DNA of 64,000 nt, from NCBI GenBank assembly GCA_004431415.1, contig QPMI01000477.1:558001-622000 (forward strand), given 5' to 3'. A program made the translations under genes and the position numbers. This document shows positions 44,054 to 64,000 of the stretch, in pieces. Each line of letters starts with the position of its first letter. The first letter of the stretch is position 1. A model generated the notes under the pieces. That model was not told the DNA's origin and ran no database searches. It saw only the letters and a program-made list of their open reading frames with translations. Origin of the DNA: Cyanophora paradoxa CCMP329. Lineage: Eukaryota; Plantae; Glaucophyta.

Positions 44054-44150
44054 GACACATATGTATAAACTTATTTAAATCCCTCGTTCATCTCGATCGC
44101 TTCGCGATCTCGATTCACTCTGGATTTAAATAAGTTTATACATATGTGTC
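44054..44150. repeat. Terminal hairpin: perfect 29-bp inverted repeat around a 39-nt centre with a small inner stem-loop
   Basis: GACACATATGTATAAACTTATTTAAATCC (44054-44082) is the exact reverse complement of 44122-44150. Inner GATCGC-TTC-GCGATC at 44095-44109. Confidence 0.95.
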
Positions 44151-44460
44151 AAAATTAATACTAAAATACGTATTTATCGATTAAATTCTTTAACTTTTTA
44201 TGCAAACTTTGTATAAATTAATGCAAACTTTGTATTAAAAATGAAAAACGTGTTTAACTTTATGCATATTTACGATTGAATCAATTGATCTTATATCGAT
44301 TGATTATGTTCTTTGTCGATTACATATATAACTGCGATTAATTTGCATTAAACTACTTAAAGAACGAAATAATCGCGATTAAATTGCATAAATTCGCATA
44401 AACTCGATATATCTCTCTTGTATTGAAGTAGACCACCGCCCATTCTGTATCGAAAAACGC

Positions 44461-44726
44461 AAAAAGTGTCACAGAGTTGCATTGTGTCCAATTGAACAAT
44501 CGATGAGATTGCTGATTTGCATTTTTGCACCCAAAAACTGTCACAGAGTTGCATTATCTCCAATTAAACAATCGATTATAATGGGATGGGCACTTTTGCA
44601 CCCAAAAAGTGTCACATAGTTGCATGGTCTCCAATTAAACAATCGATGAGATTGCGGATGTATATTTTAGATCGAAAAGTGTCACAGAGGTGCATGGTCT
44701 CCAATTGAACAATCGATTAGATTGCA
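44461..44726. repeat. Subterminal tandem repeat, 4 copies of about 71 bp
   Basis: TGTCACAGAGTTGCAT...TCCAATT(G/A)AACAATCGAT, with variation, starts at 44467, 44539, 44610 and 44680. Confidence 0.9.
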
Positions 44727-44838
44727 TATGTTCTATAAAACAGAATAATTGAGATCAAGTGTGACAGGTAGTATTCAAATGATATTCAGTAAGAGATAGT
44801 TTTGTTTTTGAGAAAGTCAGTAAGAGGGGTGGAATGTC

Positions 44839-44941
44839 TGTGACGCCTGTGACGGCTGTGACGCCTGTTTTCAGAAGTCTGTCATTTTTGAAAATTTTAA
44901 AAAGTTTGAAAGTAGGTGTCACAGGCGTCACAGGCGTCACA
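44839..44941. promoter_or_regulatory. Origin-like module 1: three 9-bp iterons, 49-bp AT-rich spacer, three inverted iterons
   Basis: (TGTGACG[C/G]C)x3 - TGTTTTCAGAAGTCTGTCATTTTTGAAAATTTTAAAAAGTTTGAAAGTA - (GG[C/T]GTCACA)x3. Confidence 0.7.
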
Positions 44942-45129
44942 CTCAATTAAATTAGGTGTCACAGCGAAATTGCAGACGATATCCAGTAAGACAACTTCGC
45001 ATTTTCAAAAAGGTTGATTAATGGATAGTGTTTTGTAGGTGTCAGAGGTGTCACAAGACGGATTTCAGTAAGACAAGAATATATTCTCGAAAATCTCAGT
45101 AAGAGAAAGAGATTCCATTTTTAATTGGG

Positions 45130-45232
45130 TGTGACGCCTGTGACGGCTGTGACGGCAGTTTTCAGAAGTCTGTCATTTTTGAAAATTTTAAAAAGTTTGA
45201 AAGTAGGCGTCACAGGCGTCACAGGCGTCACA
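45130..45232. promoter_or_regulatory. Origin-like module 2 (direct copy of module 1, 291 bp downstream)
   Basis: Near-identical 103-bp sequence, with extra GGYGTCACA sites following it. Confidence 0.7.
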
Positions 45233-45466
45233 GTCAATTAAAGAGGCGTCACAGTCAATTAAATAGGTGTCACAAGACGGATTTCAGTAAGACCATGTGA
45301 AATTCTGAATTTCTCAGTGTCAACTAACTCGGAAATCGCAATACTCTATGTTTCTCCGATTTCTCCAACCCTGAAAACACACCTGTTATTCTCTCATCTA
45401 TCTCATGAGATACTCTCGTTTCGCCAAAAATTGACAAACGATTTCCCATCATGCTGTAAAGGAAAC

Positions 45467-45733
45467 ATGCCGATTAACCAGCAATATCACAATTTCCATG
45501 GAACTTACATCTTGATTGTGAATAGAATGCAAGATCATTATGAGATCTTTCAAGAGATGGGATTGCGAATTACAAGGAGAACAACCCTTTGTAGATTCTT
45601 GAAAAAGAATGGTGCTAAATGGGATAAGACAATTCGCCGATGGTATACAGAGGATGCTAAGAGTCCCCTTCTTAATATTTTCGAGACAGATGGGGAGTTC
45701 TTCTATCAGGATCGGTTTAATCATTACCAATAG
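45467..45733 (+). CDS. Small viral protein with DUF5710-like GAKWD..RRWY motif (start uncertain)
   Basis: FLKKNGAKWDKTIRRWY in ORF 45317-45733; first ATG at 45467. Confidence 0.5.
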   Translation: MPINQQYHNFHGTYILIVNRMQDHYEIFQEMGLRITRRTTLCRFLKKNGAKWDKTIRRWYTEDAKSPLLNIFETDGEFFYQDRFNHYQ

Positions 45734-46650
45734 CCAAGAACTCCAACTGGAATGAGTTGTCAATCCCATTCATATCTACAAGATCACCATAATAATCTCG
45801 AAACTCAACTGTTAACTCTCTAATGACCAAATTGCGATCGGTTATTTTTATGTATTCACTGTGCTCTCCACTGTGATAAACATACTGTCCAATATCTTTA
45901 CTCAATTGCAGTCTGAGAATTGCTCCTTGATTCTGTGGTTGTGATCTTGGGACAATATTGTGGTTTGTAGCAAATGGGGAGAGTTCTTTAATGTGCATGT
46001 ATAAATACTGTTCTGCATTCATGTCTGTCATCTTGGCTGCTTCTAACTTGTAGTTTAAGCGAGATGCCTCGAATTCATATCCTGTGAATGTTATTCCCCA
46101 TTGGGGATGGTTTGGGGTGATTGGGATTCCTGCAAAATAGAGGAAATTCTCGGGAGCATATAAAGACCTTGCAGACTCTGGGAAATCGTAGTTCTGCTCT
46201 AATGAAGCGACCCAGTCAACAGAACTCACCCCAAGAAGTTTACCCAATCTCTGTGTAGATGCTACCATCTCGAATTGAACATTGCTGTAAAACTCCAATT
46301 TGTAGGAGGTAGGATTGTAGTAGACCTTGAATGCATATGTGAGATTGTTGCTCCCAGTAAATGTGAAATTCAGACCATAATTATATGGACTGGTGACCCC
46401 GAAATGCCCTTGATTAATATAACCACTTGGGAGAAGGAAGACCTGCTTGGTTTCAGAGATGCCTTGGTAGTAGAATCTGACAAGAAGGTGGTCTGTTCCA
46501 ATGGAGTTATAAGATGCTGTTGGGGATCTCTGCATACAAAACTCGACATTCTCTTGGTTTGGTCACTGGGGTTGTGAGTGAAACTTTGTAGGAGTTTTCT
46601 ATTTGTCCATCTGATCGGTCTCTGCTATCTATATTGACCAGCCGAATCAT
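45717..46650 (-). CDS. Minor capsid protein (penton) 1, with one frameshift near 46512
   Basis: ATG at 46650 gives MIRLVNIDSRDR...KVSLTTP...VLYAEIPNS, a typical penton N-terminus. One extra base shifts into ORF 45717-46535 (YNSIG...), which ends in the penton motif IRELTVEFRDYYGDLVDMNGIDNSFQLEF. Confidence 0.85.
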
Positions 46651-46678
46651 TTTAATATATGTTTATAGATAAAAGAAG

Positions 46679-47688
46679 ATGCCTGTGGATTACATCGAAG
46701 TGAGCTCTTTCAATACAATTTCGGGAGATGGACCAACTTCGAGTTTTATTGCTCGCCTCCCCAGCACCTATGAATTTGTGAGAGCAGTAAGACTGGTTTC
46801 AGCAGAATTCTATAACAGCATTCCCATGGTGAGTGGTGAAACCAAAGTAGGAGATGTGACAATAGATAATGCAATCTACCTTTATTGGTCTGAATATTAT
46901 TCTGGTGCAGGAAGCACTGGTATTCCAACTGATCGACCTGCTGCCGATTATGAGCAATGGAAGCACATTGTGATAAGTCGCAGCACACCCATTCAAAACC
47001 ACCAACAACTGGTGAATGTAATTAACTCCAAACTTGCATTGAGAGAGCCACCAGTAGCAATTCGCTGTAAATGGGATGATACACTGAAACGAGTAATATT
47101 CCATTCCACCATACCGTTTTACCTGGCTTTCTCAACTGCAATAAACCCAACCCAGGCGCAGATTCAGAGGTTTTGAGTTCTGCTCGACTGCTTGGTCTTG
47201 ATCCTGGGAGATATGGTAACACCCCAATCCAATCACAAGTTTATAATACTCTGACTGATGGTATCTTTACTGGGTCGATGGTGCATGGTATCATATCTTC
47301 ATTTGAACCTGAAAAGACCAGGGATAGTGTTCTGTTTGTGAGAGTAAAGGAGTTGGGTGATCTGGTTCAATGTGGTGATGGTCTCCTCACTGGATATTTC
47401 CACAAAATCGTTGTTCCAGATAAAGATTATGGTGAGCATGTCGTTTATAATTCGACAGAAGCCCATCCGATTTATAAATACTATAACAAGAATCTGGGAC
47501 TTTCCACATTTTCGGTTGATATTGTGAATGCAGTTAATGAACCAATTGATTTCGAGGGTCAACCTGTCCACCTCACCTTCGAAATTCGATATGGTGATGA
47601 ACCTGCTGGTGATCCTGTGTACGAATACTTCAAGAGGAGAATGGCGGAAACACATCCATCTTATCCTGTTATTGCGAATTTTGCGTAA
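46679..47688 (+). CDS. Minor capsid protein (penton) 2, split by one frameshift near 47130
   Basis: N-terminal SSFIARLPSTYEFVRAVRLVSAEFYNS. C-terminal ARLLG, VLFVRVKEL, LSTFSVDIVNAVNEPIDFEGQPVHLTFEI. Restoring one T joins ORFs 46679-47176 and 47173-47688 (YLAFLNCNKPNPGADSEVLSSARLLG). Confidence 0.8.
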
Positions 47689-47714
47689 AATCAAGGATCA
47701 TTGGTGAATTTTTT

Positions 47715-49115
47715 ATGTTGCAGTATAATAAAAGAGATAATCATGGATATTACTTCGACCCTCCAACGTCTTTCTCTGAAAGAAGCTCTAACAACCCGGA
47801 AGAAGCCAAGGCGTTCTTCTTGGACAACTCTCTCATGCTTGGTCTTGAATCCAAGTCGAAGCCAGTTCTTGTTGTTGTGAACCCAAGCAACACTTTCGAG
47901 AATAATGCTGGAAATCGCATTTCTTTCAAGCTCCCTCGCTACAATTTCTGTGGAAAACTCGAACTTGCGTTTGACCTTCCAGCTGTCACTTTTGCTGGTG
48001 ATACCGACCTTGTTCGCAATGGATACGTTCGCCCAGTTGGTGCTCTTGTCTCTCGACTTGAAATTACCTATGGATCTTACACCTTCCATGTGCCTTCTGA
48101 TTTCCTTGCTCATTTCCCTCTTATCTATTACAGTGAGGATCAACTCGCCAAGAAGAAGCGTTCAATGGGAATGGTTCATGGTATCCCTGCCCATGGAACC
48201 AACCGACTTGGTGGGTCATTTTTCACTGAAATCCCAGTCCCATGGCTAAACCACTACCTACCTCTTGGTGCTCTCTCAGGAGAAATGGTGGTAACTGTCT
48301 GGTTCAAGGATGCTGGAAAGGGTTATGTTGAGACTTCTTATGGTGGTCGTGCTCTTCCTGTTGTTGGTGGAACAGCTGCTGATAAGACAGAGGATGATGG
48401 ACTTGGTGCTACTGCTAATGCTACTCTTGCCCATGTTGGTCAACAAATCACCACTTTTGGAATTGGTGCAACAACAACCCCCGAAATTAAAGTCACTTCT
48501 CCTCGTCTTTACATGCATGCTATTAATGTTTCTGATGAACTGTTTGCTACTGTCATTGAGAAGGTGAAGACCACTGGTATGGCTATTCCTGCTCTGGATA
48601 TTGGTTTTGTTGACAGTGTCAATTTTGCTGCAAAAGGCAATGCTCAACCAAATCGTATTAACCTGTCACAGATCTCTGGTCTTGTCTATGGTCTTCTTGT
48701 TTCAGTTCGTGATGCCGCAGGTATTGATGGTTTCAATGGTTCCCACAGTGTCCTAAAAACGCATGCTAACTCAAAAGACATTACTTTCACTGTTGAAATT
48801 AATGGTCAACGTCTCTATGCTACTGAGCCCATCCCTCTCCTCAAAGGTGCCGAATTAATTGCGGATGCCTTCAAGTGCTCAAATATGGACAAGGTTGCAG
48901 ACAAATATGTCCTCAGTGGTCTACCATTCTGTGTTGATGGAGAGAAAGCGATTCGCAACATTGCCCAGTCTGGCTATGTTGATCTCACGAACTCCTCCTC
49001 CTCTTTCCTCACTCTATACATGCCTTCTGACCAGACAATCACAGTTAATGTTCGTGCTCTCATGCACAGTTTCATTATTGTTGACAAAGATGGGCTCCGA
49101 CGAATTAATCTGTAA
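47715..49115 (+). CDS. Major capsid protein (double jelly-roll), PLV type
   Basis: 466 aa, beta-rich; GNRISFKLPR...LELAFDLP, VSRLEITYGS, EIPVPW..YLPLGAL..EMVVTVWF; lies between the penton and the ATPase. Confidence 0.85.
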   Translation: MLQYNKRDNHGYYFDPPTSFSERSSNNPEEAKAFFLDNSLMLGLESKSKPVLVVVNPSNTFENNAGNRISFKLPRYNFCGKLELAFDLPAVTFAGDTDLVRNGYVRPVGALVSRLEITYGSYTFHVPSDFLAHFPLIYYSEDQLAKKKRSMGMVHGIPAHGTNRLGGSFFTEIPVPWLNHYLPLGALSGEMVVTVWFKDAGKGYVETSYGGRALPVVGGTAADKTEDDGLGATANATLAHVGQQITTFGIGATTTPEIKVTSPRLYMHAINVSDELFATVIEKVKTTGMAIPALDIGFVDSVNFAAKGNAQPNRINLSQISGLVYGLLVSVRDAAGIDGFNGSHSVLKTHANSKDITFTVEINGQRLYATEPIPLLKGAELIADAFKCSNMDKVADKYVLSGLPFCVDGEKAIRNIAQSGYVDLTNSSSSFLTLYMPSDQTITVNVRALMHSFIIVDKDGLRRINL

Positions 49116-49177
49116 AACCATTATCAGTAACGTTTCGTTATTTTTATCTATCTTTAATAAGAAAGATCTACTACGCC

Positions 49178-49936
49178 ATGTCTGACGTTCCCGAATTTAA
49201 TGCTGCTGAGATGATTAAACCCCCTTTTCGCGTATTAGCAATCGGAAAAAGCGCGACGGGCAAGTCAGAAGCCGTAAAATATTGGCTAAAACAACTTCAC
49301 GATGCGAAAAAGTTAGATGTTGTTCTTGTTATAAGTGGGACATCATTCAATCATTTTTGGGATGATGTTGCAACATTACAGCTCGGTAAATGGGATGCGC
49401 CTTACATCGCTAAACTTCTCGATGAAAGACAAGAGAAAATTGAGAAAGGAGAACCCGTTAATCAATTATGTGTTGTTCTCGATGATCTTATAGACAATGA
49501 GATTGTAGACCTTACCCGTGATAAAATTATTGGATCTCTGTATTCGCGCGGCCGCCACTCGGCGATTACAATTTTCTGCATAACTCAGAAACTGCGTAAG
49601 GTTTCTTCAACCATTCGCGTCAATTCGGATTATGCAATGTTCCTCAGTGCCGCCAATCGCAAAGAACTGGAAGCCATTGAAGAAGAATACAATATCATGC
49701 GGGATAAAGACGCTTTCTATAAGATGTTTGAGGAATACGTTCACTCCTATCAGTTTCTCATTTGGAGTTCTGCGAATTATTCGGTGGAATACTACGTTGA
49801 TAAAGCGGAACTCGTTAAAGACTTTAAGTTTCCTCGGTTCCACAGGAAGCCCAAAAAGAAAGAGGACGAATTACCACCTCCACAGAAAGAGGAAGCCCCA
49901 AAGAGGTCAAGAGTGGTGTTCATTCGAATAAACTGA
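49178..49936 (+). CDS. A32-like genome packaging ATPase
   Basis: Walker A IGKSATGKS, Walker B VVLDD, family motif SRGRHSAITIFCITQ, IRVN. Confidence 0.95.
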   Translation: MSDVPEFNAAEMIKPPFRVLAIGKSATGKSEAVKYWLKQLHDAKKLDVVLVISGTSFNHFWDDVATLQLGKWDAPYIAKLLDERQEKIEKGEPVNQLCVVLDDLIDNEIVDLTRDKIIGSLYSRGRHSAITIFCITQKLRKVSSTIRVNSDYAMFLSAANRKELEAIEEEYNIMRDKDAFYKMFEEYVHSYQFLIWSSANYSVEYYVDKAELVKDFKFPRFHRKPKKKEDELPPPQKEEAPKRSRVVFIRIN

Positions 49937-49987
49937 TGCGATATAAGAGAGGTTTATAAAATAATCTCTGCTTCTAATAAATATACA

Positions 49988-50722
49988 ATGCCTTCCAAAC
50001 GCAAAGTTGGTGTTCCTGCTGGTGCTATGTCATATTCTGCATCCTCTGGAACCGGTTCTATTAACACAGAGCCCATGAAATTCAATGGTGTCAATGAAGT
50101 TAAAGCATCACAGCAACAAGAAGATCCCCTCAATGCTGCTTACGAAGAATCACCAGATGATAAAGCTCCCCAAGCTTCCACAAGTGACCAGTTGAATATT
50201 TCGCCCGAAACCTCTAAGATGAAGGCAGTTGGTGAAGGTGCTCGTCGAATTATTGGTGCTGCTGATGACAAAGGACTGGGTCTCCAAGATCTGTCCCTTG
50301 CTCGCAAAGGTGAAGGTGTCTCCAAGGAATCAGACAAGGTAATTCAATCCATGGCTGGTGAGGTGACCTACAAGGTCGCACCTACACAGAATATCCACCG
50401 AATTCCCAAAGCCCAATGGGACGAAATGACTGCGAAACTGAAAGATCTGGAAGCGAAATCCAGTGCTCTTGAACAGTATGTCTCTGAGAAGAAAGAGAGA
50501 GCGAAATTAAAGGAGATGCTGCGAAAGGAGGTGTATAGAATGGGAATCACTGGTCTCCCAGATAAGCAATTCATTGGTAAGAAAGAGACTCAAATTGATG
50601 AGCAGGCAGTTGATGAGATGAAGACCAAAACCCAAAAGGGCACCATTGAACCTGGTGCTACCAAATCAGAGGTCGATAAAGGTGTTGCCCCAACAGTATA
50701 TAAACGACGAGTATGGCTTTAA
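49988..50722 (+). CDS. Viral hypothetical protein (hydrophilic, coiled-coil segment)
   Basis: Intact 244-aa ORF with AT-rich leader, co-oriented with the virion genes. Confidence 0.7.
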   Translation: MPSKRKVGVPAGAMSYSASSGTGSINTEPMKFNGVNEVKASQQQEDPLNAAYEESPDDKAPQASTSDQLNISPETSKMKAVGEGARRIIGAADDKGLGLQDLSLARKGEGVSKESDKVIQSMAGEVTYKVAPTQNIHRIPKAQWDEMTAKLKDLEAKSSALEQYVSEKKERAKLKEMLRKEVYRMGITGLPDKQFIGKKETQIDEQAVDEMKTKTQKGTIEPGATKSEVDKGVAPTVYKRRVWL

Positions 50723-50749
50723 TTATCTCGCATTAAGAGAGAGAGCATC

Positions 50750-50983
50750 ATGGATTTCTTGCGAAAAATCATAGAGATGTTTAATCTCCACATTGTGAGC
50801 AATTGTCACAGTGGCTGCTGTGAAACCAAAGTCGAAATCGAATTCTCTGACACTGAAAGTCATGGATCTGGTGGTAGGCGATTATCCACAGACTCGGTTG
50901 ATTTCGAGGAGCATATTAAGACAGAGACAGTGAGGCGACGCTCTGTATCTTTCACAGATCCGAAATTAAATCTCGGTAATTAA
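50750..50983 (+). CDS. Small viral hypothetical protein with SNCHSGCC motif
   Basis: 77-aa ORF tightly packed after the previous gene. Confidence 0.55.
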   Translation: MDFLRKIIEMFNLHIVSNCHSGCCETKVEIEFSDTESHGSGGRRLSTDSVDFEEHIKTETVRRRSVSFTDPKLNLGN

Positions 50984-51184
50984 TATCGAATGCTCAGTCT
51001 CTCTGAGATCTATGCTATCCTGGACAGGAAATCCGCTGAATATGCAACAGAAGACGCAATAAAAAAGCGTAGACAGGAACTGGTCTCGATCTGCAAAAAA
51101 TGACAAGGGATTTAAGGGTAAGGTGTGTTTGATTGGTGAACCCGGACAAATTATTTTCTCGTCCAAATATAAGGAACATATCAA

Positions 51185-51412
51185 ATGGAAACTGAATCTG
51201 TGGTCGAATTCGAACTTGCAATGAGCGAAATGGATCCCAATGAGAGGAAAAGGTTGTATGACCGCTTGTATTTCCAGAAACGCTATCAAGATGAGGAGTT
51301 TCGTGAATTATATCGTAAAAAGGCACTGGAACGATATTATCGCAGGAAAGCTGCTGAGATGGATCCCAATAATCCAGTAAAACGCCCAGTTGGTCGTCCC
51401 AGGAAATACTGA
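51185..51412 (+). CDS. Small basic protein with C-terminal AT-hook
   Basis: Arg/Tyr/Lys-rich helix ending KRPVGRPRKY. Confidence 0.7.
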   Translation: METESVVEFELAMSEMDPNERKRLYDRLYFQKRYQDEEFRELYRKKALERYYRRKAAEMDPNNPVKRPVGRPRKY

Positions 51413-53970: not shown

Positions 53971-54069
53971 ACAAAACAGAATCGATTCTAATACTGATTG
54001 AATTTCTTATTTTTTAAAAACCTTACTGTAAATGGTTTGTGTGACAGCTGTGACACCTTTTTAATTGAG

Positions 54070-54172
54070 TGTGACGCCTGTGACGCCTGTGACGCCTACT
54101 TTCAAACTTTTTAAAATTTCAAAAATCTACAAACCTCTGAAAACAGGTGTCACAGGCGTCACAGGCGTCACA
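54070..54172. promoter_or_regulatory. Origin-like module 3 (inverted copy), 100 bp downstream of the primase-helicase gene
   Basis: Reverse complement of modules 1 and 2 with a few differences; two more TGTGACA sites at about 54040-54056. Confidence 0.72.
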
Positions 54173-54323
54173 CCCAATTAACCACAGACTCCCCCTGTGG
54201 GTCGATGACTTTTTCGATTCTTTATCGGACAATATAAAAACGTATCGTAAATCGGTGTGTTTTGACAAAAATTGACTGGCGATTTAAGGGATCGTTGCGT
54301 ATTTCACTTGACTTGGACAGAAA

Positions 54324-54590
54324 ATGGATTATTTTGATGAAATTCGGCAGCAGCTTGTCGAAAAGAATGATATTGCACAGGTGGCGGAATATATTGCAAA
54401 GATCAGAGCAATCAATGGTAGACCCTATCAAAAGAAGCGAGTGTATGCAAGCAGACTCGACACAGTAAATGTATATGTCCCAAAGGCACGAATGTGCGAA
54501 TTATCAGAACCTGAAAAATGGGAAATGCGTTTAAAACGCCCAAAAATAATATGTTCCCTTAAAGTAAAAGATGCCCCGCCAATCCAATAG
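54324..54590 (+). CDS. Small viral hypothetical protein
   Basis: 88-aa ORF overlapping the pPolB start. Confidence 0.45.
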   Translation: MDYFDEIRQQLVEKNDIAQVAEYIAKIRAINGRPYQKKRVYASRLDTVNVYVPKARMCELSEPEKWEMRLKRPKIICSLKVKDAPPIQ

Positions 54591-57500
54591 AATCATCAAA
54601 GAGAAGAAAAACGAAATACTCGGTCTTTTAGGAACCCTTTTAGTCACTGGTGATATTACAGAATTCGAATATGATCGCCAGGCAGCAATCCTGGATAGGA
54701 GACCAAGGTTATCTCAACTCACAGAAATTACAAATCGCCTCTATGATCGTTTTGAGAAAATGGAGGAATTCAGGGATGAAGGTTTAAGGTTGGGAACAAT
54801 TGAACCCGAGATTGAGGATGGGGAAGCAATGAACAAAGCATATTCTTGGTTAACCTATCGAGCAAGAGGGGAGGTTATCCAAGATGGGATTGAATTCTTG
54901 GAGAGAATTGCACCCACTCTACCTCAGAGACTCAGACAGAAACTCCAAGACCTGAGAGCAATTAAAACTCGGTTGACCTTCATTTGTAAATTCACCAAAG
55001 TGAGTGATCCCAGGGTGTGGATCACGAAATTCATTTACAGTGATTACTTTGTCATCACAAGATCACGAAATATTGATGTTGAACTGCGAAATGCCCTTCA
55101 ATCCATGCAGGAGCAGATGATGCAGGTGGACAGTTACAGACTGGATCGCATTGAGATGCTGAGAGTGGTAATAATGTCTTATGCTCCTGTGGGTGGTTGC
55201 TTCTTCTCAACTCCTGAGTGGATTGGATCAAAGAGAGCAACTGTGAATGTCAAGAATATTGATGGTCAAGATTGCTTCAAGTATGCAATCTTGGCTTACC
55301 TGCACCGAAATGATATTAATAAACACAAGAGCAATGAACCCAGCCAGTATAGAAGATGGTTAAACGAACTCAATTTCGAAGGCATCCAGTTTCCAGTTGC
55401 CTGTGATGCAGAGGTTATTGATCGATTTGAGGAGCAGAACCCTGAACTGAGTATCAACATTTATGGTGCAGATAATCAAGCACAGTGTTTCTATCCTCTC
55501 CATCAATCCAGCAACCCGAGGAGAAAGACCAAGATCAACCTTTTATTAATCGAAAACGAAGAGGATGATAGAGGGCATTATATCACCATCATGTCTCTGA
55601 GTAGACTCCTGAAAACCACCTTTGATAAAGCCCATGATGGTCGCATTTATTACTGTGAGACCTGCCTGTCTCGTTTCAGAACTCAGGAGAAGCTGGACAT
55701 TCACTTAGAAGCCAATCGCTGCATTGATTGGAGGGAGAGCAAAGGTAAATGCCCGAAATCTGGAAGTCACATTGCATTTGGGCTTCAACACCTTCGCAAA
55801 ACTGTGTGGCTTCCCACTATCTGCTATGTAAAAATGGACAGTCACTCGGTTCCAATTGATGAGAACCGCAGTAAAAGAGAGGTCAAATCGGTTTCTTTAA
55901 CAGTTGTGATGGGGGATGAGGTGATCTCTCATTATTTCGAGGGATCAGATCCACTTGGTGCTCTGTTTACCACTCTCACAGAGATCAGACCCCAAGTAAT
56001 CCGCACTCTATTCACCAATATTCCAATGCACCCACTCACAGAGGAGCAGAAAGCAAAATACAAGATGACTAAACACTGTTATATCTGTGCTGAACGATTT
56101 ACCCATGAGAATTTCCCAGTGAGAGACCATTGTCATCAAACAGGCGCTTTTATTGGAAAAGCATGTCGGAACTGCAACCTCCACAGGAGAATCTCAAAGC
56201 AAACCAAAGTAGCAATTGTGGTGGATCACATGGATGAATGTGGACACGAAATATTCCGCAAAATTGCACAGCAAGATGATAAACTTCGTGTTGAGATTCT
56301 GAGCAAGAATTTCGACCAATACCTCTCCCTGCAATGGGGCATGTGGAAATTCATAGATGCTTCGCACTTCATGGACTTCCAGGCAGTGGATGCAAGTGAT
56401 CTAATGGGTAAATTCCAGACATTCCGAGAATTGGCGTTTTCCCAATATGGATTGGATCCTGCCCACTATGTTTCGGCTCCTGGATTATCCTGGGATGCAA
56501 TGCTCATTTACACCAGAGCAAAGATTGAGCAGATCAGTGATGTAGGGCAATACGAATTTATTGAGAGGGCAATTCGAGGTGGGTTTGCTACAATGCCTAC
56601 TCGATATGCAAAGGTGGAAAACCCAGATGACCATATAGTTCTCTTGGATGCAAATAATCTGTATGGTTATGCTCTCAGTCAAGAACTGCCCATTGGCGAT
56701 TTTCGATGGGAAGATGTCTCAGAGGCACTTAAAGAGACCCCAGGACGAAGTGCCTTCATTGAAGTTGACCTGGAATACCCACAAACTCTCACAGATCATT
56801 ACGATTTTCCACTTGTAGTGAATAAAGAGCATGTCACCACCGAAATGCTGGGTGGGTATCAAAGAAAGTTACTGGATATCACAGGTGAGAAGATAAGCAA
56901 AGACCCCAAACTCACAGCAACATTCTCACCCAAAAACAACTATGTGATTTCCCAACCTCTCTTGGTCTATCTTGTGAGCAAAGGTATTATAATCACGAAG
57001 GTTCACAGGGTTCTCTCATTTGCAACCTCTGCATTTATGAATAGTTATATTGATCTAAATACGAAATTGAGGCGCCAATCTATGTCCAGATTCGAGAGTG
57101 ACTTCTTTAAATTAATGAACAATGCAATCTATGGTAAATGCCTCGAATCATGCAGGGGTCGCTCTGTGGTAAAGATTGCAAACAGTGAGAAACTCTGCAA
57201 GAAATATGCTGCAAGTCCACTCATCAAGGCAACCAATGTATTAAACGAAAATGCTGTTGCCTTTGAGATGTATTCCAAGCATGTTCACTTAGATAAACCT
57301 GTTGCAATTGGTGCTTTCGTGCTGGATTTTGCGAAACTCCATAATAGCAGGTTCTTTTTTGATGTGGTGAGGAGAACTTGGGAAACAGCAGAGCTACTAT
57401 TCCATGATACAGATTCTTTCTGCCTACTGCTGCATACCAATGATCTAAATAATGAGATGAAGCGAATTTCTGAACACCTGGATTGCAGTAATTATGATCC

Positions 57501-57678
57501 CTCCCACCCTCTCTTTGATAGGAGCAATCGTTTGATTCCAGGTAAATATAAAAACGAGTTTCCCAAAGCTCAGCACTGCGCCGTGTCTCCAAAAAAATAC
57601 CCGCGAAAAAATCAAAAACAAATCAGAAAACAAACCATTCCCAGTAACCCAATCTTGAATATCAGTAAATCTCAGTAA
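54571..57678 (+). CDS. Polinton-type protein-primed family B DNA polymerase, apparently C-terminally truncated at about 57575
   Basis: VNVKN...CFKYAI; C2H2 finger CETC...H; EndoVII-like insert CYIC...VRDHCH..G...AC..CN; GLDPAHY.SAPGLSWDAM; DANNLYG; KLMNNAIYGK; HDTDSF; GKYKNE, after which the ORF runs into repeat DNA. Confidence 0.93.
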   Translation: MPRQSNRIIKEKKNEILGLLGTLLVTGDITEFEYDRQAAILDRRPRLSQLTEITNRLYDRFEKMEEFRDEGLRLGTIEPEIEDGEAMNKAYSWLTYRARGEVIQDGIEFLERIAPTLPQRLRQKLQDLRAIKTRLTFICKFTKVSDPRVWITKFIYSDYFVITRSRNIDVELRNALQSMQEQMMQVDSYRLDRIEMLRVVIMSYAPVGGCFFSTPEWIGSKRATVNVKNIDGQDCFKYAILAYLHRNDINKHKSNEPSQYRRWLNELNFEGIQFPVACDAEVIDRFEEQNPELSINIYGADNQAQCFYPLHQSSNPRRKTKINLLLIENEEDDRGHYITIMSLSRLLKTTFDKAHDGRIYYCETCLSRFRTQEKLDIHLEANRCIDWRESKGKCPKSGSHIAFGLQHLRKTVWLPTICYVKMDSHSVPIDENRSKREVKSVSLTVVMGDEVISHYFEGSDPLGALFTTLTEIRPQVIRTLFTNIPMHPLTEEQKAKYKMTKHCYICAERFTHENFPVRDHCHQTGAFIGKACRNCNLHRRISKQTKVAIVVDHMDECGHEIFRKIAQQDDKLRVEILSKNFDQYLSLQWGMWKFIDASHFMDFQAVDASDLMGKFQTFRELAFSQYGLDPAHYVSAPGLSWDAMLIYTRAKIEQISDVGQYEFIERAIRGGFATMPTRYAKVENPDDHIVLLDANNLYGYALSQELPIGDFRWEDVSEALKETPGRSAFIEVDLEYPQTLTDHYDFPLVVNKEHVTTEMLGGYQRKLLDITGEKISKDPKLTATFSPKNNYVISQPLLVYLVSKGIIITKVHRVLSFATSAFMNSYIDLNTKLRRQSMSRFESDFFKLMNNAIYGKCLESCRGRSVVKIANSEKLCKKYAASPLIKATNVLNENAVAFEMYSKHVHLDKPVAIGAFVLDFAKLHNSRFFFDVVRRTWETAELLFHDTDSFCLLLHTNDLNNEMKRISEHLDCSNYDPSHPLFDRSNRLIPGKYKNEFPKAQHCAVSPKKYPRKNQKQIRKQTIPSNPILNISKSQ

Positions 57679-57966
57679 GCCTCAGTAAGAAACATTGAAT
57701 TAATCGAAGTTATATCATAATCTCGATTAATTATATCTTATCGAAGTTATATCTTTTTTATGCGCCGTGTCTCCAAAACAATTCCCAAGAAAAACAAACC
57801 ATTCACAGTAACCCAATTCCAAATCTCACTAAATCTCAGTAAGCCTCAGTAACAAAAATCGAATTAATCGAAGTTATATCTTAAATCTTATTTATCGAAG
57901 TTATATCATAATCTCGATTAATTATATTTAATCGAAGTTATATCCTTTTCATCCGCCGTGTCTCCC
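57577..57966. repeat. AT-rich tandem duplication (about 184-191 bp units) between the convergent pPolB and integrase genes
   Basis: CGCCGTGTCTCC at 57579, 57763 and 57954; ATCGAAGTTATATC five times; AAATCTCAGTAAGCCTCAGTAA twice. Confidence 0.85.
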
Positions 57967-57971
57967 ATGAT

Positions 57972-59033
57972 TTAGCGTTTCGTTAAACCACTTCTCAAAT
58001 TGTATCTCCTCCGAATTACATTACTCCGATTGGGTTTTATGCCTTCTTTTGCTACCAATCGATTCACTTTATTCGTTTTATTAACCTGCTGAATCCGTTT
58101 TTGTGATGGTATCTTAATGATATCATCTTTATTCACCTTTTGCAATTCTTGTTTCTTAAATCTCCTCTTCACTTCTTTTGTTTCCTCACCATCATTATCT
58201 TCAAGCACTTTGAAACGATTCCTATCAGCCTTTGCAACAGTGTAGACCTTCTGACTGAATTGCGCACCTTCTTTTTCAAACAATCCCTTTGGTTGCAAAA
58301 CTCGAACTGTGTCTCCTGGTTTCACTTGATTAGTATCAGCCTCCTTTACACGATTGTTGTGAACAGTATCCCTCATGTAAATAAATAACTGTTTATCTTC
58401 ATTTGTATACACTGCATTTGGAGAGTCATTTTTCAATGCAGAATGGGGACTGCTATTATACAAGTCAATTACATCACTAAGTAGATCGATCCATTTCGTG
58501 GTTCCCTTTGCTGTCATCGATTTTCTGAGATACTGTTTGAAAGTCCTAGTGAACCTATCAATTATCCCCAGTTTATCTCCTACTGTGATGTGGTCATCCT
58601 TTGCCACATCTGTGTATAGCATTACACCATGTTCACTGCACCAATTTCGGTATACTGCCTGGGAAAACTCATTATCCCCAGAGAGAGCATTAACTTTGCC
58701 TGCTTCTTGCTTGAACCTATTTAAAATGCTCGGGATCTCACTGCTGTTTTTAAAAGGATAAACAAATCCTTTGCGACTAAGTATGTCTACGAAACTAAGC
58801 ATTTTGAAAATGCCATTGTTGGCAGTCTGAAACCCTCTGAAATATGTTATATCGATTTGAAACGATCTAGGCTTTGCCACTATGCGAAGAAACGATTTGG
58901 GTTTCCTTGGTTTCTTGTAAATTTGCTGGAGTTCTGAGTTTTTGAACTTCTTTTTCAACTCTTTTTCATCAAAACTCACTTTTTCATTAATCAGTTTCTG
59001 CCTATACTTTTTGAATGATAATACACTATCCAT
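57972..59033 (-). CDS. Retroviral-like (RVE) integrase of Polinton type
   Basis: FQIDITYF; FVDILSRKG; LSGDNEF; GIIDRFTRTFK; WIDLLSDVIDLYNSSPHSAL..SP; GDTVRV. Confidence 0.93.
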   Translation of the reverse strand: MDSVLSFKKYRQKLINEKVSFDEKELKKKFKNSELQQIYKKPRKPKSFLRIVAKPRSFQIDITYFRGFQTANNGIFKMLSFVDILSRKGFVYPFKNSSEIPSILNRFKQEAGKVNALSGDNEFSQAVYRNWCSEHGVMLYTDVAKDDHITVGDKLGIIDRFTRTFKQYLRKSMTAKGTTKWIDLLSDVIDLYNSSPHSALKNDSPNAVYTNEDKQLFIYMRDTVHNNRVKEADTNQVKPGDTVRVLQPKGLFEKEGAQFSQKVYTVAKADRNRFKVLEDNDGEETKEVKRRFKKQELQKVNKDDIIKIPSQKRIQQVNKTNKVNRLVAKEGIKPNRSNVIRRRYNLRSGLTKR

Positions 59034-62000
59034 TATTGGGCGGCACAGTTACACTTAATATGAGAGAGGAAACAATTTTTGGTAATGTGAGCCACAGCAT
59101 TATTAATTCGATCTACCGAAATATCTTCAAAGTCCATGGCATTGTAGCATCGCAGGCAATGCCCATACTGCTTCCCATATCGCTGCTTGATCCAATCCCA
59201 TGTGATGTAATCATGCTCATCGAATTGTCTGTTTGCTGCTCGGTCCTGATCCTTGTAAGTCGAAATCTTCTCGTTATTCTCTCTTTTCCACACTTTCCAG
59301 TGAGCCATTTCGAAATTATCATGGTAAATAACAACATCATCCAGCCTTGTGGTTCGAGTGAGAGCAACATATAGCCACTTCTTTGAAACAAATGGCGCCC
59401 CAGTTTCGAACACGACTACCCTGTTCCCTTTGCAGCGAATCGTATCACCTTGAACAACATGGCAGGTGTTTGCGTAAGCCAGGGCGAAATGTTTGACTGC
59501 ATCCCTGCTGAGAACAATCTCATCCTTCTTGTTGGCAATGTCAGCAATAATGAAACTGTCCTTTGAGAGCTTGACAATCTTGTAGACAAATCCATTATGA
59601 ACTATCTTCCCACCCTTTGCAATACGAGTCTTTGCAACAACTTTGATCCCGCCAGCATAAATGGAAACATTATCCCCGTAGTTCATTTTGTGAAGGGCTA
59701 GGTTCACCTCTGCACCCTTGCGGTTTGTATACACAATGCCTTTATCTGTCTTTGCCAATTCGTCCACAACCTTGAACCCGTACTTTGCTAGGACCTCACT
59801 TACACTCAAACCTTTCTCGAATAAATCAATTCGAATTTGCTCAACCTTTCTGCGATCTTCCTCAGTCTCATGGCGCTTGTTCACTTGGAGTAACAATTCG
59901 TTGGGGAACAGGCGATGGAGGATATCAAGGTAATACTCATCTTGATCAACACTCATATCCTGAATGGTGGGTTCTGATACGGGTCACCTGTGGCAATGTA
60001 TACCTTATCTGGGAACTGCTCATTCATGATGTGGTCCAGGGCTGCCAGTTCTCCAATCTTAAACTGACAGATCTCATCAATAACAATGCAATCAAATTCT
60101 ACCAAACCAGATGCATTCCCTCCTACGATTTCATCCATGTTCGACTCATCGATTTTGAGATGAAGGGCATCATAGATTGTCTTCACATTTTTCAATCCTT
60201 GCTCTTTCATTTCCTTCACTCGCTTGTTGGTCGGAACAATATAGAGGGGATTTTTGAAACGCTTCCCATATTCAACTGTCATGTGAGTCTTTCCAACTCC
60301 TGGAACTGATCCGAGAAGAACCCATCGTTTTTGTGTAGCCAGCAAATCACAAATCGCGGTTGTGTCATACTCATCAACCACAGAGTGTTTGGTATAACTG
60401 TAGTTCTCGATTTTCACAAAGTCAGTCGCTCTCTCAAACTTTCCGTAACGAATTCGTTTTGCCTCGAGGTCTTTCTTCTCACCTGAAAACTTTTTAGAAA
60501 AATTGGGGCAGCATTTCACACTGAATTTTCCAATATTCTCAAAGGCATTGCGATCGAATGACACTGGGGCAATGGGTTCATAAGCGATCCCATAAACACA
60601 ATCGGTGTTCAAAGCGAGTGGTCGGATCTGCTGTTTAGCGAGTTCGACACACTTCTCATACATACACATCCTCATAATTGACAAGAGGGTAGTGTACAAT
60701 GGCATGAAGCCATCAATGAGCTGCTTTTCTGCTACCTGATTGACATAGTAGATATGGGGTTCGGTCATCTCTTCCTCACACAGAACGAACTCTGTCTCCT
60801 CATAAGTGGCAAGAGTCTCACCAAAGAGGTAAATTTTAACCTCCCTCCGTTCTGTTTCTGGAACTCGATCGCATCGTCTCTGTTGTGGAAAATGGTGGTT
60901 TTCACTCTGCTATTTCGTTGCTTTCCAGTTTGCCCAATTGCACTCACCAAGATCTGCTTCTTATCAACAGGATCGAGGTCGCTATCTAAGATTCGAGCAA
61001 CTGTGTTGCCTGCAAGGTTGGGAATGAGTTTGTAAGGTCGCAGAACCGCTTTGATGGAGATGTCATCCTTGAAATCCTCGAAATGCTTTTTGAGAACCAA
61101 ACCAGGAACGACATTGTACTTGGAATCAATGATCATCCTCTTGTATCTGTTGTAGGTGTTTGCTTCGTACTCCTTTCCGTTCTTGTCTTTGGCTTTGAAA
61201 AAGTATTTGTCGTCCAGTTTCACGTAATAGAAGCTGTATTCCTCGATTTGCTCTGCATCTGTGATTGTCACACTCTTGAAGACATCGAACTTGCTGAGAA
61301 CAGGAACGAATTTGATCATCAAGGCTACAATGTAAGGGTATGCTTTGCACATATCGAACTCGTAAATATCTGTGTTATAGCGAATTTCATCAAAGGTCTC
61401 CTCATCCACATCAAAGAGACCACGAAGGGCAGTCTGCACTCCATTCTTGAATGCATTTATGGTTTGCTCATTGTAAGTACTCTTGTTGGAAGTGTTGATT
61501 AGAGACCTATACATATCCAGATTTAGTTTCTCGAATTTATCTCTGTACTCAGCATTCTTGAAGCTAATCTCGAAAGCTGTTTCCACATCTGTATCGTTAC
61601 CAGGTGGGGTCACGACAACATCCTTATCGTCAATAGTGAAACGAATATGGGTTGCCTTTCCGATTTGGGAGAACCCAGGTTGGACCTGATAATTATGCAC
61701 CACAATGAACTCTCTGAGTAGTTCATCCAGTGAACCACCATAGCAGATTCGAATGCTCGATTGGTTCTTTGGATTGTCAGACCTGACAATTCTCAGAATG
61801 TCATCGGGATTTGTGGCAAACTCCTTGAACCTTCTTTGCTTTATAATCTTGTAACGAGAACTGAGTGGAACATTGGTATCTTTTGGCTTGGAGCCATTGA
61901 AGGACTGTGTGAGAGCCTTAATATTGTGATTTAACAAATACATGTGACCATTCTCAATCTTCACATATGCAACAGAAGGGGTCAAGTGTGTGTTCCTGGT

Positions 62001-63117
62001 CTTGGGCAGGAAAGTCAGTTCAGGGACAGGGGTTCTGTCGTCCTTTCCAATTGTAACCATGCCTAGGCGCAGTGGGTCAAGAACCTTCTCCGAAATGGAC
62101 TTGAAAGAAATGCCCCAATCATCTCCTTCAACAGGGTCTCGCCCATTCACCATCTTAAAGAGTCCGTTGTAAGACCAATCGATTCGCTTGTATTTCCCTT
62201 TGGTCTTAGCCTTCTCAAACGCTCCTCCAAACCATTTGATGAGGACATCGAAAACACACTTCCCAACCTTGAATGAATCACCTTTCAAGAACATTTCCTT
62301 GAATGTGGTGGCTTGGGGGTTCCCTTCGTTTTTAATGAAATTCGAAATAATCATTGGAGCGTTTGTATTGTCTCTGAGGACTTGTTCATTTCTTGGATGT
62401 ATTCTTCATTATCTGTCGTGATGACTCTTTCAATTGTCATAATATCGGGTAGGTATCTTGCTCAATTAGTTTTAGGTAGCGGAAATCTTGATTGGTCGAG
62501 TTAAACTCAATAACTGCTGCAATAAATTCAGCAATGACAGTCCCCTCAACACATGGGAACGTATTGAAGGTGGATTGAACCAGACCGAGAGCATTCAGAA
62601 AAGCTGCCTTGGTACACTGGATACCAAAGGGGCGATTGTTCCGAAGCCTCTTCGATTCAATGTAGGTCACACCATTCTCAGTGACCCTGTTTGCATTTGC
62701 AGGGGCTTGTTCTCCCTCTTGCAACTCACGGAAGAGTCTCACATTCAGGGTGACCATGTTTCCAGGTGAGTTTTCAACAAACTCACGGAGGTTAGCAATC
62801 ATCTGCTGGAAAGGAGTCAAGCGCTTCCGCTCTCTCGCTTGCTCCGCTTTCTTGTTTTGCTTCTCAACATTCTTAGCGGCTCTCTCAGCCCTCTTCTCCT
62901 TCTTCTCCTGCTTGCGATACAAACGAGGCTCTACGATACCTCTCAGTGTATCTCTGATATCAATCAACTTTGGAATTCTAATTGCTTTGAAAGTAAATTC
63001 TCTCAAGAAATAGATATCCTGCTCTCGGGTCAATTTGTCTTCTACTTTTGCTTGCATGTAGTAGCCAAGAATCTCATCCTGCAAATTTTTCGAAATTCGA
63101 TTACTTGGTCGAGGCAT
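59033..63117 (-). pseudogene. Second polymerase gene: divergent PolB + SF1 helicase + HNH fusion broken by about 4 frameshifts (real decay or assembly indels)
   Basis: In order across four ORFs: N-terminal domain (62437-63117); PolB motif A YEFDMCKAYP and motif B KQILVSAIGQTGK (60765-62354); motif C LNTDCV, then Walker A GVGKT, IVIDEICQ, GDPYQ (59953-60768); AYANTCHVVQGDT, LYVALTR and HNH SVDRINNAVAHITKNC...CN (59033-59956). Single-base additions rejoin the frames (NGGEVKIYLFGET near 60843; NPPIQDMSVDQ near 59965). Confidence 0.82.
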
Positions 63118-63358
63118 TTCTTTGTTCACTCTATTAATATATACCTACAAAAGTTTTCTTTAAATACTTTTATACTCGCGTCAAATTTTACCGACAAAAC
63201 CAAAAGTCTCCAACAAAATAAATTTAGTCGAGGGCATTCATAAAAATAACAAAGGGTTGGCTCGATCATCGAACTCTAAAAATAACAGAATGATTATATT
63301 TGTGGTTCCAGCGCGTTTCCCACGGGTTTCTCAGAGCAGATCGCGCTGAGAAAAACGA

Positions 63359-63616
63359 TTAACAGAGATATTTCGATTTGCGACCACGGTTAGAATACGG
63401 GACACCATAGAGATACTTCACAAAGCAGACTGCATTGGAAGCATAGAGACGCTGGGAACTCTCAACGATCTTCATGGCTCTGTAACACTCATCAGTATGG
63501 TATAAGTCACGCATTTGCTTTGCAAATCTGGCATTGTACTTTTTCAAATATTCCTGACCTTTTTCAGTTTTACGATAACGATAAGTAGCACGCTTCTGAG
63601 CCTCACTGATTGGCAT
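63359..63616 (-). CDS. Small basic viral protein (SEAQKRA..RY motif)
   Basis: MPISEAQKRATYRYRKTEKG, preceded by an AT-rich leader. Confidence 0.65.
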   Translation of the reverse strand: MPISEAQKRATYRYRKTEKGQEYLKKYNARFAKQMRDLYHTDECYRAMKIVESSQRLYASNAVCFVKYLYGVPYSNRGRKSKYLC

Positions 63617-64000
63617 GTTGTCCTTTTCTACTCTCTTAATATATGTTAAGAAATCTTTAAGTAGTTTTTCTGTCTGTATATAGCGAATAAACTCCTGTCA
63701 AATTTTGGTCCCGATTGCAGAGCATCCAGTACGAAAGAAGATGCTGGAAAAATGATAAAGCCACCGATACCCAGAAGGTTCACTTGTCGGCTGCAAGTTT
63801 CTACCACTGAACCCGGTAGAACAGGTGATTAAAGTGATTTACCTATGGATATTTCACTTCGCTCTACAACGCCTCCATAAAAATGAAGAAGTTTTGAGCC
63901 TACGGGATAGGATTGGTTACGTAGCGCTAACAATGTTTGAGAAATTATATTATTCAGATTGATCCTTAACGGCGATAACCGGGTCTTATACCAAGCTTGG

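Follow-up and report, generated by a model that had tools for sequence, protein, structure and literature searches.

Tlr1-like helicases (pPolB-S1H) are known from polinton-like viruses (PLVs), Tlr1 and transpovirons, and the available text on Tlr1 pairs such a protein with an RVE integrase (PMC11161782, PMC5499653). For polisuvirus elements, the accessible parts of two preprints describe nesting, the presence of two replicases (pPolB plus a D5 primase-helicase), repeats bracketing the replication block and terminal palindromes accompanied by non-pPolB replicases (bioRxiv 10.64898/2026.10.13.758929, 10.64898/2026.07.28.741278). The replication module of mavirus, as presented in the sections available, combines an exonuclease-less pPolB with a separate SF3 helicase gene (PMC11161782). 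SaPI origins are described, in the portions of the sources at hand, as short iterons of about 300 bp in all, opposed around an AT-rich middle and located just downstream of the SF3 primase-helicase gene pri-rep (PMC9371898, bioRxiv 10.64898/2026.10.17.759575). A large SF1-pPolB fusion, reportedly with its exonuclease domain kept, was described in an endogenous protist PLV, OmPLV (PMC12721341, excerpts).

The window analysed here is a stretch of 64,000 nucleotides from Cyanophora paradoxa, in which the GC content drops from 0.56-0.67 in host DNA to 0.33-0.43 from position 44054 to the window end. The original prediction saw in this region one contiguous low-GC insert with three replicase genes. 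Physical contiguity, the GC step and the three DNA-copying genes are confirmed, but an element end lies at 57567 and the three genes are most likely split between two nested virus-like elements, A and B, rather than carried by one triple-replicase virus (Table 1). Both elements are most likely multi-copy, the insertion of B into A's pPolB gene having probably been carried out by the integrase that B encodes. Element A would be a PLV with capsid genes, a primase-helicase and a pPolB, within which B is inserted. Nested elements, elements with two replicases and the Tlr1-like fusion have all been described before; less usual here are a polymerase without proofreading motifs and a predicted replication origin directly behind the primase-helicase gene.

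Table 1. Features of the low-GC insert, in window coordinates
Feature	Position	Strand	Remarks
Element A	44054-57566		Terminal hairpin, double-jelly-roll capsid gene, A32 ATPase, AEP-SF3 primase-helicase, pPolB
Presumed left end of A, 97-nt imperfect palindrome (hairpin)	44054..44150		Begins exactly at the GC step
71-bp tandem array, subterminal	44460..44725		3.7 copies
Palindromic iteron array, copy 1	44839..44964		GTGAC recurring every 9 nt, with inverted repeats and an AT-rich middle
Palindromic iteron array, copy 2	45121..45254		94% to copy 1
Probable minor capsid protein 1	45717..46650	-	Listed ORF 45717-46535; putative identity
Probable minor capsid protein 2	46679..47688	+	Split in the window; putative identity
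Double-jelly-roll capsid gene	47743..49115	+	Atlas and structural comparison
A32-family packaging ATPase	49178..49936	+	PF04665, E 3.9e-9, above cut-off
244-aa ORF	49988..50722	+	No family found (Pfam, PHROGs)
Small basic ORF	51185..51412	+	C-terminal end with what we take to be an AT-hook-like motif
AEP (Prim-Pol)-SF3 primase-helicase	51607..53970	+	787 aa, single intact ORF; Prim-Pol + D5_N + DUF5906
Palindromic iteron array, copy 3, predicted replication origin	54048..54181		~80 nt behind the primase-helicase stop
Polinton-type pPolB	54571..57566	+	DNA_pol_B_2; EndoVII insert; truncated at 57566, at the junction with B
Element B	57567 to beyond 64000		RVE integrase and Tlr1-like pPolB-SF1 protein with a putative HNH-like tail
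End of element B	57567..57971		Starts with AG, then duplicated unit of ~190 bp; 14-nt motif at 57577, 57761 and 57952
RVE-type integrase	57972..59033	-	Pfam rve-like
Tlr1-like replicase (vOTU, pPolB palm, SF1 helicase, putative C-terminal HNH-like)	59033..63117	-	Four ORFs in the window
85-aa basic ORF	63359..63616	-	No family found (Pfam, PHROGs)

Among the window ORFs, Pfam recognised the A32 ATPase, Prim-Pol + D5_N + DUF5906, DNA_pol_B_2, the rve-like integrase and SF1 pieces. No maturation protease was found by Pfam among 16 window ORFs, and the only visible integrase is that of B; element A has none within the window. None of five window proteins searched in an exact-sequence collection was present there. 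When the window was compared with short-read contigs, at least 12 indel differences were counted in the insert region among the matches listed (39 further). Contig depth differs between the integrase/helicase stretch and the remainder, and is unsuited to ranking genes.

The boundary between A and B was placed at 57566/57567 because public contigs break at this identical base from both sides (reciprocal breakpoints). In a contig of run X1, agreement with the window ends after 57566, and the sequence that follows reads on in frame as pPolB usually does (alignment columns 1490-1510). A contig of run X18 begins with 191 letters unlike the window, of which a 17-nt piece is absent from the window, and then matches 57567-57732, that is, the end of B on a different flank. 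This evidence consists of two contigs, one per run, X18 being guessed to be RNA; the source sample may be among the runs, all of which derive from a single organism. Position 57567 can be considered an element end because subterminal repeats follow and because it starts with AG, as common Maverick end motifs do according to the available text of PMC8097293. The cut of pPolB at 57566 is confined to this locus.

The RVE integrase proposed earlier was confirmed: beside the Pfam match, its acidic catalytic positions D61, D120 and D159 are invariant in 18 aligned sequences. Elsewhere too, members of this integrase family are found immediately after a large replicase gene: of 82 loci, 24 gave a match to pPolB and 3 to the helicase-HNH tail, and 3 additional upstream ORFs, out of 9 proteins scanned, contained SF1+HNH by Pfam. 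A contig of run X10 covers the integrase and the helicase tail with no difference from the window (57968-59728). The assignment of the integrase to the Tlr1-like helicase of element B, and not to pPolB, is thus supported.

The second PolB-SF1-HNH fusion corresponds to the described Tlr1-like helicases and is most likely encoded by one ORF of ~1,360 aa. Contigs over this gene are longer than the window by four bases (59790-62658, X16), three bases (59996-62658, X10; 60310-62658, X1) or one base (59790-60213, X1). The frame offsets are exactly accounted for by these extra bases (net counts; three runs, four contigs), so that the frameshifts can be regarded as an assembly artefact. The SF1 helicase domain was recognised as AAA_19 (E 2.4e-8) and by hhalign against four related fusions (91.9%), with which its motifs align. 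The pPolB palm was recognised by Atlas (0.91-0.94; DNA_pol_B_2 on 18-26% of the cluster members); palm motifs A and C line up with those of the four relatives, while motif B is misaligned and was judged by eye. Aligned vOTU residues are found in 3 of the 4 relatives for Cys and in all 4 for His. A C-terminal CxxC...DR...H...CN pattern is common to this protein and to L013, L014 and L017, with no Pfam HNH match. The middle piece gave no hhalign match to pPolBs or to the four fusions, and a weak search among 7,639 candidates returned no longer relatives of it. Moreover, the first 70 residues of the two PolB-type replicases are alike (score 69, 0 of 5,000 shuffles), a likeness chosen after an all-against-all comparison of 17 proteins; it fits a past exchange, but also a nearer relationship of A with B. 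Following the scheme put forward for Tlr1-like elements, B would replicate by protein priming through its pPolB-SF1 fusion and would integrate by means of the neighbouring RVE integrase.

With a predicted double-jelly-roll (DJR) capsid, in part deduced from a low-confidence model, and an A32 ATPase, element A can be classed as a PLV. Pfam and PDB sequence searches with the capsid ORF were empty and a single-sequence structure prediction was uninformative (pLDDT 31). Atlas related this ORF to Capsid_N/Capsid_NCLDV clusters (0.98, 216-222 features in common), with a recognition value of 1764 that is under the tool's bar. With a model of low confidence (pLDDT 38), the best six of 48,161 chains were all DJR-type viral proteins, aligned over the first jelly-roll only (Z 7.7-9.1, rmsd 4.1-8.0, 151-168 aligned). 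Among 1.84 billion representatives, just 2 relatives of the capsid turned up, too few to assign it to a PLV group. No hhalign match was obtained against five other capsid candidates, and scans of viral contigs for related loci returned none for the capsid, the SF1 piece or the primase-helicase. The two minor capsid genes are probable: Pfam and PHROGs gave no match for either, and the first has weak phmmer matches to ORFs of PLV-like contigs (E 0.02-0.04). Reads have one base fewer at 46511, which would shift the start of minor capsid protein 1 upstream of the listed ORF, and one extra base at 47170 in minor capsid protein 2. Thus, of the full virion module initially proposed, the ATPase (Pfam) and the DJR capsid (Atlas, structure) stand, while the minor capsids are only probable.

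According to the alignment, the pPolB of A keeps the vOTU Cys/His residues and polymerase motifs A, B and C. Its exonuclease motifs I and II are altered; all 10 relatives that span Exo I retain it, and all 12 that span Exo II retain that motif. About 100 aa including motif III are missing, and the distance from EndoVII to YxLDP is 108 aa versus 204-220 in relatives (both anchors found in 5 of 14). Judged from its sequence, the enzyme therefore appears to depart from the TP-vOTU-EXO-PALM layout of Polinton (Maverick) pPolB by the loss of exonuclease motifs I-III. In a tree of 15 rows (14 of 21 hits retained by length, no mavirus sequence included), it sits on a long branch inside an unresolved 11-row clade. 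Among the variant sites listed, 31 of 37 are synonymous, versus 21-26% expected, and no stop is seen. In intact A copies, this proofreading-less pPolB would act as an elongating or end-replicating polymerase; the present copy, without the pPolB C-terminus, would depend on such copies. The original prediction considered both PolB genes damaged and raised the possibility of a lineage caught replacing its replicase. The damage is not borne out: the frameshifts of the Tlr1-like gene correspond to four bases missing in the assembly and pPolB is cut only at this locus. Because this premise finds no support, with frameshifts matching assembly indels and pPolB variants mostly synonymous, the replacement scenario is unsupported.

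The primase-helicase is intact, as first proposed. The repeat at 54.2 kb behind its gene, previously taken as a seam, is more likely its iteron origin, because the layout is SaPI-like and because the motif is placed behind SF3 helicase genes elsewhere. Copy 3 is inverted relative to copies 1 and 2 and 91-92% alike. Immediately behind the SF3 helicase gene, its short iterons appear opposed around an AT-rich middle, a predicted SaPI-type layout. A 16-nt piece of the repeat occurs at 47 viral loci. An SF3-type helicase gene is present at 8 of them, 7 of which carry the motif 97-244 nt downstream from that gene (0.17 expected); this count represents about four independent lineages, since two of the ORFs are identical and three are 56-61% alike. 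The helicases at the 47 loci were recognised by Pfam and by a local profile whose seed ORFs had initially been picked up close to the motif, whereas phmmer with the window primase recovered none of them. In the mechanism proposed for A, the inverted GTGAC iterons downstream of the primase-helicase gene, together with the two arrays close to the left end, would be bound by the SF3 helicase, which would melt the AT-rich middle and prime with its AEP domain. A targeted literature search returned no publication on iteron-based replication origins in PLVs. Contigs of X1 and X10 run from the primase-helicase tail into the repeat with zero differences (53830-54089). Of the 6 loose ends listed for 54048-54172, 5 were assigned by eye to one of the window's other two copies or to the inside of the palindrome; the remaining one, of 10 letters, is unassigned. 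No contig among those listed spans the whole repeat (54.05-54.26 kb), and the primase-pPolB link is thus indirect. Joining ORF 54324 to pPolB by an extra base at 54478 was rejected, as the offset changes from 247 to 248 and is still out of frame.

The question of how many units are present must then be considered. The locus could be made of a small capsid and primase-helicase PLV, a separate pPolB unit and element B interrupting the latter, the right inverted repeat of the PLV surviving only as 54048-54181. The inversion of copy 3, which brackets the capsid-primase block with copies 1 and 2 like a cut-short TIR, agrees with such an arrangement, as does the fact that none of the listed contigs spans this repeat. 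In addition, the available text of the Barth preprint describes a contig made of three units, two of its parts being transpoviron-like, which also has an AEP gene, and the association of pPolB with a primase-helicase, called uncommon in the accessible part of PMC3671162, counts against the preferred reading of two nested elements. However, the repeat can be accounted for independently, by an origin that follows the helicase gene directly, its likeness to the left end stops at the palindrome and no alternative neighbour emerges from the listed loose ends. The three-unit arrangement therefore seems unlikely.

The region has many uncorrected indels and none of the listed contigs (706 pieces and 40 loose ends further) crosses the window's own 57566/57567 junction, as would be expected if two real multi-copy families had been joined by a chimeric assembly. 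Such a chimera is nevertheless very unlikely, because the join coincides with the base independently marked as the end of B by another run and nothing would lead an assembler to a mid-gene position that happens to be an element end. One virus whose three replicases and integrase move as a unit, the primase-helicase replacing two decaying PolB genes, would account for the physical contiguity, for the similar GC (0.37-0.43) and GC3 (0.36-0.51) across genes and for the N-terminal stretch common to both PolB-type proteins. This is highly improbable, being largely refuted by the existence of an uninterrupted pPolB and of a relocated B end; moreover, the Tlr1-like gene is most likely intact and pPolB variants are mainly synonymous. 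Two nested elements thus remain the preferred reading. They agree with the composite initially envisaged, except that the cut lies at 57566/57567 inside pPolB and that the integrase goes with the Tlr1-like helicase.

It is possible, if doubtful, that A is a working two-enzyme replicon, in which a self-loading primase-helicase hands over from SaPI-like iteron origins to a pPolB with independently lost proofreading, and that B is a capsid-less, integrase-bearing, transpoviron-like nuclear parasite jumping into such viruses. If true, one more case of 'exonuclease lost, helicase gained', at an early stage, would be on record, along with a defined origin sequence for a PLV. The two-element reading removes the apparent oddity of three replicases in one virus and would provide a base-exact example of one polisuvirus-type element lodged in another; such insertion has been put forward as a way in which replicases are swapped. 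How AEP-SF3 PLVs start replication is a question on which the predicted iteron origin bears, and the occurrence of a pPolB without exonuclease motifs next to an SF3 helicase is relevant to the published view that helicase gain goes along with a loss of proofreading. Broken genes in uncorrected long-read assemblies call for a short-read check.

Compared with known systems, B's protein shares with Tlr1-like helicases the vOTU Cys/His, palm and SF1 motifs and perhaps a C-terminal HNH-like domain, as well as the RVE pairing seen in Tlr1; no close relative was found for its N-terminal two thirds. It resembles the OmPLV fusion in being a large SF1-pPolB protein of an endogenous protist element, but no exonuclease motifs were recognised in it. 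The probable nesting, the two replicases, the repeats bracketing the replication block and the terminal palindrome all have counterparts in polisuvirus elements. Unlike in the preprint texts, whose figures may contain a similar element, the insertion point is base-exact and an internal palindrome is read as an iteron origin. As in mavirus, the pPolB of A appears to have lost its exonuclease and lies next to an SF3 helicase gene. In contrast to mavirus, this pPolB still shows 25-29% identity over its length with complete polinton-type pPolBs and has their EndoVII insert, the helicase of A has an AEP primase domain and its capsid resembles NCLDV-type clusters. Finally, A's iteron array has the position and opposed layout of a SaPI origin, with a predicted binding to iterons of another sequence, in a shorter array (~135 bp), in a eukaryotic element and with two extra copies near the element end.

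The GC content of the window falls in steps, from 0.67 at 1-26 kb to 0.56 at 26-44 kb and 0.33-0.43 from there to the window end. The flank of the low-GC insert is GC-rich and eukaryote-like, with fragmented ORFs; the stretch leading up to the insert (GC 0.46-0.68, mean 0.56) holds few long ORFs. Also on the host side are a long gene whose repeats we take to be filamin-like and IPT/TIG-like, a direct repeat that aligns at 89% over 677 columns and includes 144 nt of exact identity, and an 86-nt palindrome. Pfam searches of 16 ORFs matched an A32 ATPase, a primase-helicase (Prim-Pol/D5_N/DUF5906), a polymerase with an EndoVII insert (DNA_pol_B_2), pieces of an SF1 helicase and, weakly, an rve integrase. 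The protein encoded at 47.7-49.1 kb is a double-jelly-roll capsid: it scores 0.98 in the Atlas against Capsid_N/Capsid_NCLDV clusters, recognition being under the Atlas bar, and a poor three-sequence model (pLDDT 38) ranks DJR-type viral proteins as the top six of 48,161 chains (Z 7.7-9.1). The gene inventory of the original prediction thus holds, two minor capsid genes being probable only. A 59% relative of the capsid, P0001, was also found.

Coordinates of the features in the window
Feature	Position	Strand
Long host gene	1165-7242	-
Host-side direct repeat and palindrome	12702-13800 / 13944-14029	
Lower-GC stretch leading up to the insert	26000-44000	
Element A (probable polinton-like virus, PLV)	44054-57566	
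Palindrome	44054-44150	
Iteron array, copy 1	44839-44964	
Iteron array, copy 2	45121-45254	
Iteron array, copy 3 (54.2-kb repeat)	54048-54181	
pPolB of element A, N-terminal likeness	54571-54770	+
Element B	57567 to past the window end	
RVE integrase	57972-59033	-
Third replicase	59033-63117	-
Third replicase, N-terminal likeness	62890-63117	-

Contigs from the public short-read runs X10, X1 and X18 were compared over 53.7-58.4 kb. An X1 contig departs from the window behind 57566 and continues, in frame, with the conserved stretch that complete pPolBs have at this point. An X18 contig (depth 13.8) carries 191 unlike letters before 57567 and then matches over 57567-57732; a 17-base piece of its flank has no match in the window. 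The two contigs, one each from X1 and X18, thus agree to the base, the first with the pPolB uninterrupted and the second with the end relocated, and we interpret this as an insertion of element B into element A's pPolB. The end of element B starts with AG, like the common ends of Mavericks (PMC8097293), and then has a duplicated unit about 190 bp long; the 14-nt motif of this end is on its own not rare (7 of 100 shuffles with two mismatches allowed).

Of the words sampled from 54-64 kb, about 80% occur in public short-read contigs, all from one organism and one run possibly from the source sample (at least half in 17 of the 24 listed runs). When contigs of X1, X10, X16 and X18 were aligned onto 44-64 kb, one-base differences appeared at 46511, 47170 and 47794, where window ORFs change frame; that at 47794 is independently backed by P0001. 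Over the third replicase, contigs exceed the window by 4 bases (X16, 59790-62658), 3 bases (X10, 59996-62658; X1, 60310-62658) and 1 base (X1, 59790-60213), as net counts per contig with positions outside the rows listed, and otherwise show 0-2 differences. Joining the four window ORFs requires offsets of 2, 1 and 1, so that the third replicase is most likely a single ORF, about 1,360 residues long. The gene breaks are mostly assembly errors, and the damage claimed for this PolB is not confirmed.

In alignments, the third replicase shows the Cys and His of the vOTU, motifs A and C of the palm, the SF1 motifs and, at the C-terminus, an HNH-like pattern. Its middle, with no match by hhalign, gives Atlas values of 0.91-0.94 to Preplasmiviricota and DNA_pol_B_2 clusters, and its helicase part reaches 91.9% by hhalign against four related fusions. 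It is a Tlr1-like helicase, a known kind: such helicases are described in PMC5499653 and PMC11161782, those of PLVs ending in HNH and Tlr1 carrying an RVE integrase. The three acidic residues of the integrase are kept in 18 of 18 aligned sequences (17 of the 25 matches entered the alignment). Among 82 integrase loci (2 viral and the best 80 of 132 metagenomic, many just 1-3 kb long), a same-strand upstream match to pPolB occurs in 24 and to the helicase-HNH tail in 3; Pfam finds SF1 and HNH in three further proteins upstream of related integrases. Replicase-then-integrase is therefore the usual block of this integrase family. In the SF1 fusions of three such blocks (L009:1621-7657, L010:2273-7097, L079:762-5661) the HNH lies mid-protein (about residue 480-620) rather than C-terminally; L009 and L010, both with 16-17% GC, belong to a bin whose label is that of a giant virus genome. 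An X18 contig covers the integrase (1,075 nt, gap-free, 28 differences), and the run also contains other, more distant integrase-like contigs; the window regions concerned are 58022-59096 and 63344-64000. There are probably further families of B-type elements.

Over its length, the pPolB of element A shares 25-29% identity with seven environmental pPolBs of the polinton type, and it retains the Cys/His of the vOTU as well as polymerase motifs A-C. Exo I and Exo II are altered; among the relatives that cover them, 10 of 10 keep the former and 12 of 12 the latter. About 100 residues including the motif III region are absent: the anchor-to-anchor span is 108 residues versus 204-220 in the 5 of 14 relatives with both anchors, and a KGVYPY-like motif present in 9 of the 14 is missing. 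An X18 contig with 19 differences crosses 56027-56612 gap-free, and no indel occurs there among the rows listed at 40% share, where copies less than 90% alike would escape; as far as shown, the deletion is common to more than this copy. After dropping 3 upstream of the gene from 40 listed variants, taken from different contigs, 31 of 37 are synonymous (21-26% expected), six look conservative and none is a stop. The claimed decay of this PolB is thus not supported, and the family is probably maintained. Diverged pPolB and capsid paralogues in the same runs (56170-56243, 55492 and 47173-48130; loose contig ends) indicate that A-type elements comprise several subfamilies. About 70 starting residues are similar between this pPolB and the Tlr1-like protein (score 69, 0 of 5,000 shuffles), a hint that the two families once exchanged an N-terminal piece.

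The 54.2-kb repeat sits about 80 nt past the primase-helicase stop, with GTGAC every 9 nt, an AT-rich middle and then three inverted copies. A 16-nt piece of it is present in 47 viral loci. VapE-like or DUF5906 helicase domains occur in 7 of 18 scanned nearby ORFs, one also with Prim-Pol, and when all 1,681 ORFs were searched locally, 8 of the 47 loci proved to have an SF3-type helicase. In 7 of these 8 the motif lies 97-244 nt downstream of the helicase (0.17 expected), with opposed arrays as in the window; the seven represent about four independent lineages, and the helicase profile was built from ORFs first found near the motif. These unrelated viral contigs, with opposed arrays directly behind VapE-like/DUF5906 genes, are L099, L101, L102, L115, L116, L129 and L130. 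The layout is shared with SaPI origins, which are bound by their own SF3 Rep (PMC9371898 and bioRxiv 2026.10.17.759575), and we infer a putative origin, of which the element has two more copies near its left end. Literature searches, with most subscription journals outside them, found no paper combining PLVs with iteron origins and none for GTGAC with a primase-helicase.

We consider it likely that the insert is a nested pair of elements, both of known kinds. As a single unit, the triple-replicase virus of the original prediction most likely does not exist, since the uninterrupted pPolB and the relocated end of element B meet at the same base; that all belongs to one element is very improbable. 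Hardly more credible is a misassembly, although the window's own 57566|57567 junction is spanned by none of the contig pieces listed. Three units, with the 54.2-kb repeat as a cut-short TIR, appear unlikely though better placed than these; the idea arises because copy 3 is inverted relative to the two copies near the left end. A contig (53830-54089) links the primase tail to the repeat, and among the contigs shown none crosses it.

Of the nested pair, the module of element A is worth keeping: its primase-helicase has a predicted iteron origin and is accompanied by a polinton-type pPolB that lacks the exonuclease. Helicase gain accompanies exonuclease loss in mavirus and Tlr1-like proteins (PMC11161782), and this pPolB would be another such case; its tree contains no mavirus or Tlr1-like references and so does not bear on whether the loss was independent. 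Searches leaving subscription journals mostly uncovered listed no paper seen to describe a polinton pPolB with inactivated exonuclease together with a primase and a helicase. Further literature for comparison comprises PMC10120064, PMC12220804, PMC13215967, PMC8502044, PMC3671162 and PMC12721341. The text of the Barth preprint (bioRxiv 10.64898/2026.10.13.758929) reports multi-replicase genomes, tandem integration, replicase-bracketing repeats and a three-unit contig, and that of the Halocafeteria preprint (bioRxiv 10.64898/2026.07.28.741278) nesting, pPolB with a D5 primase-helicase within one element, and terminal palindromes; their figures and supplements may contain the same or a similar element, the comparison being by text alone. 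The palindrome that begins element A is like the terminal palindromes of the latter.
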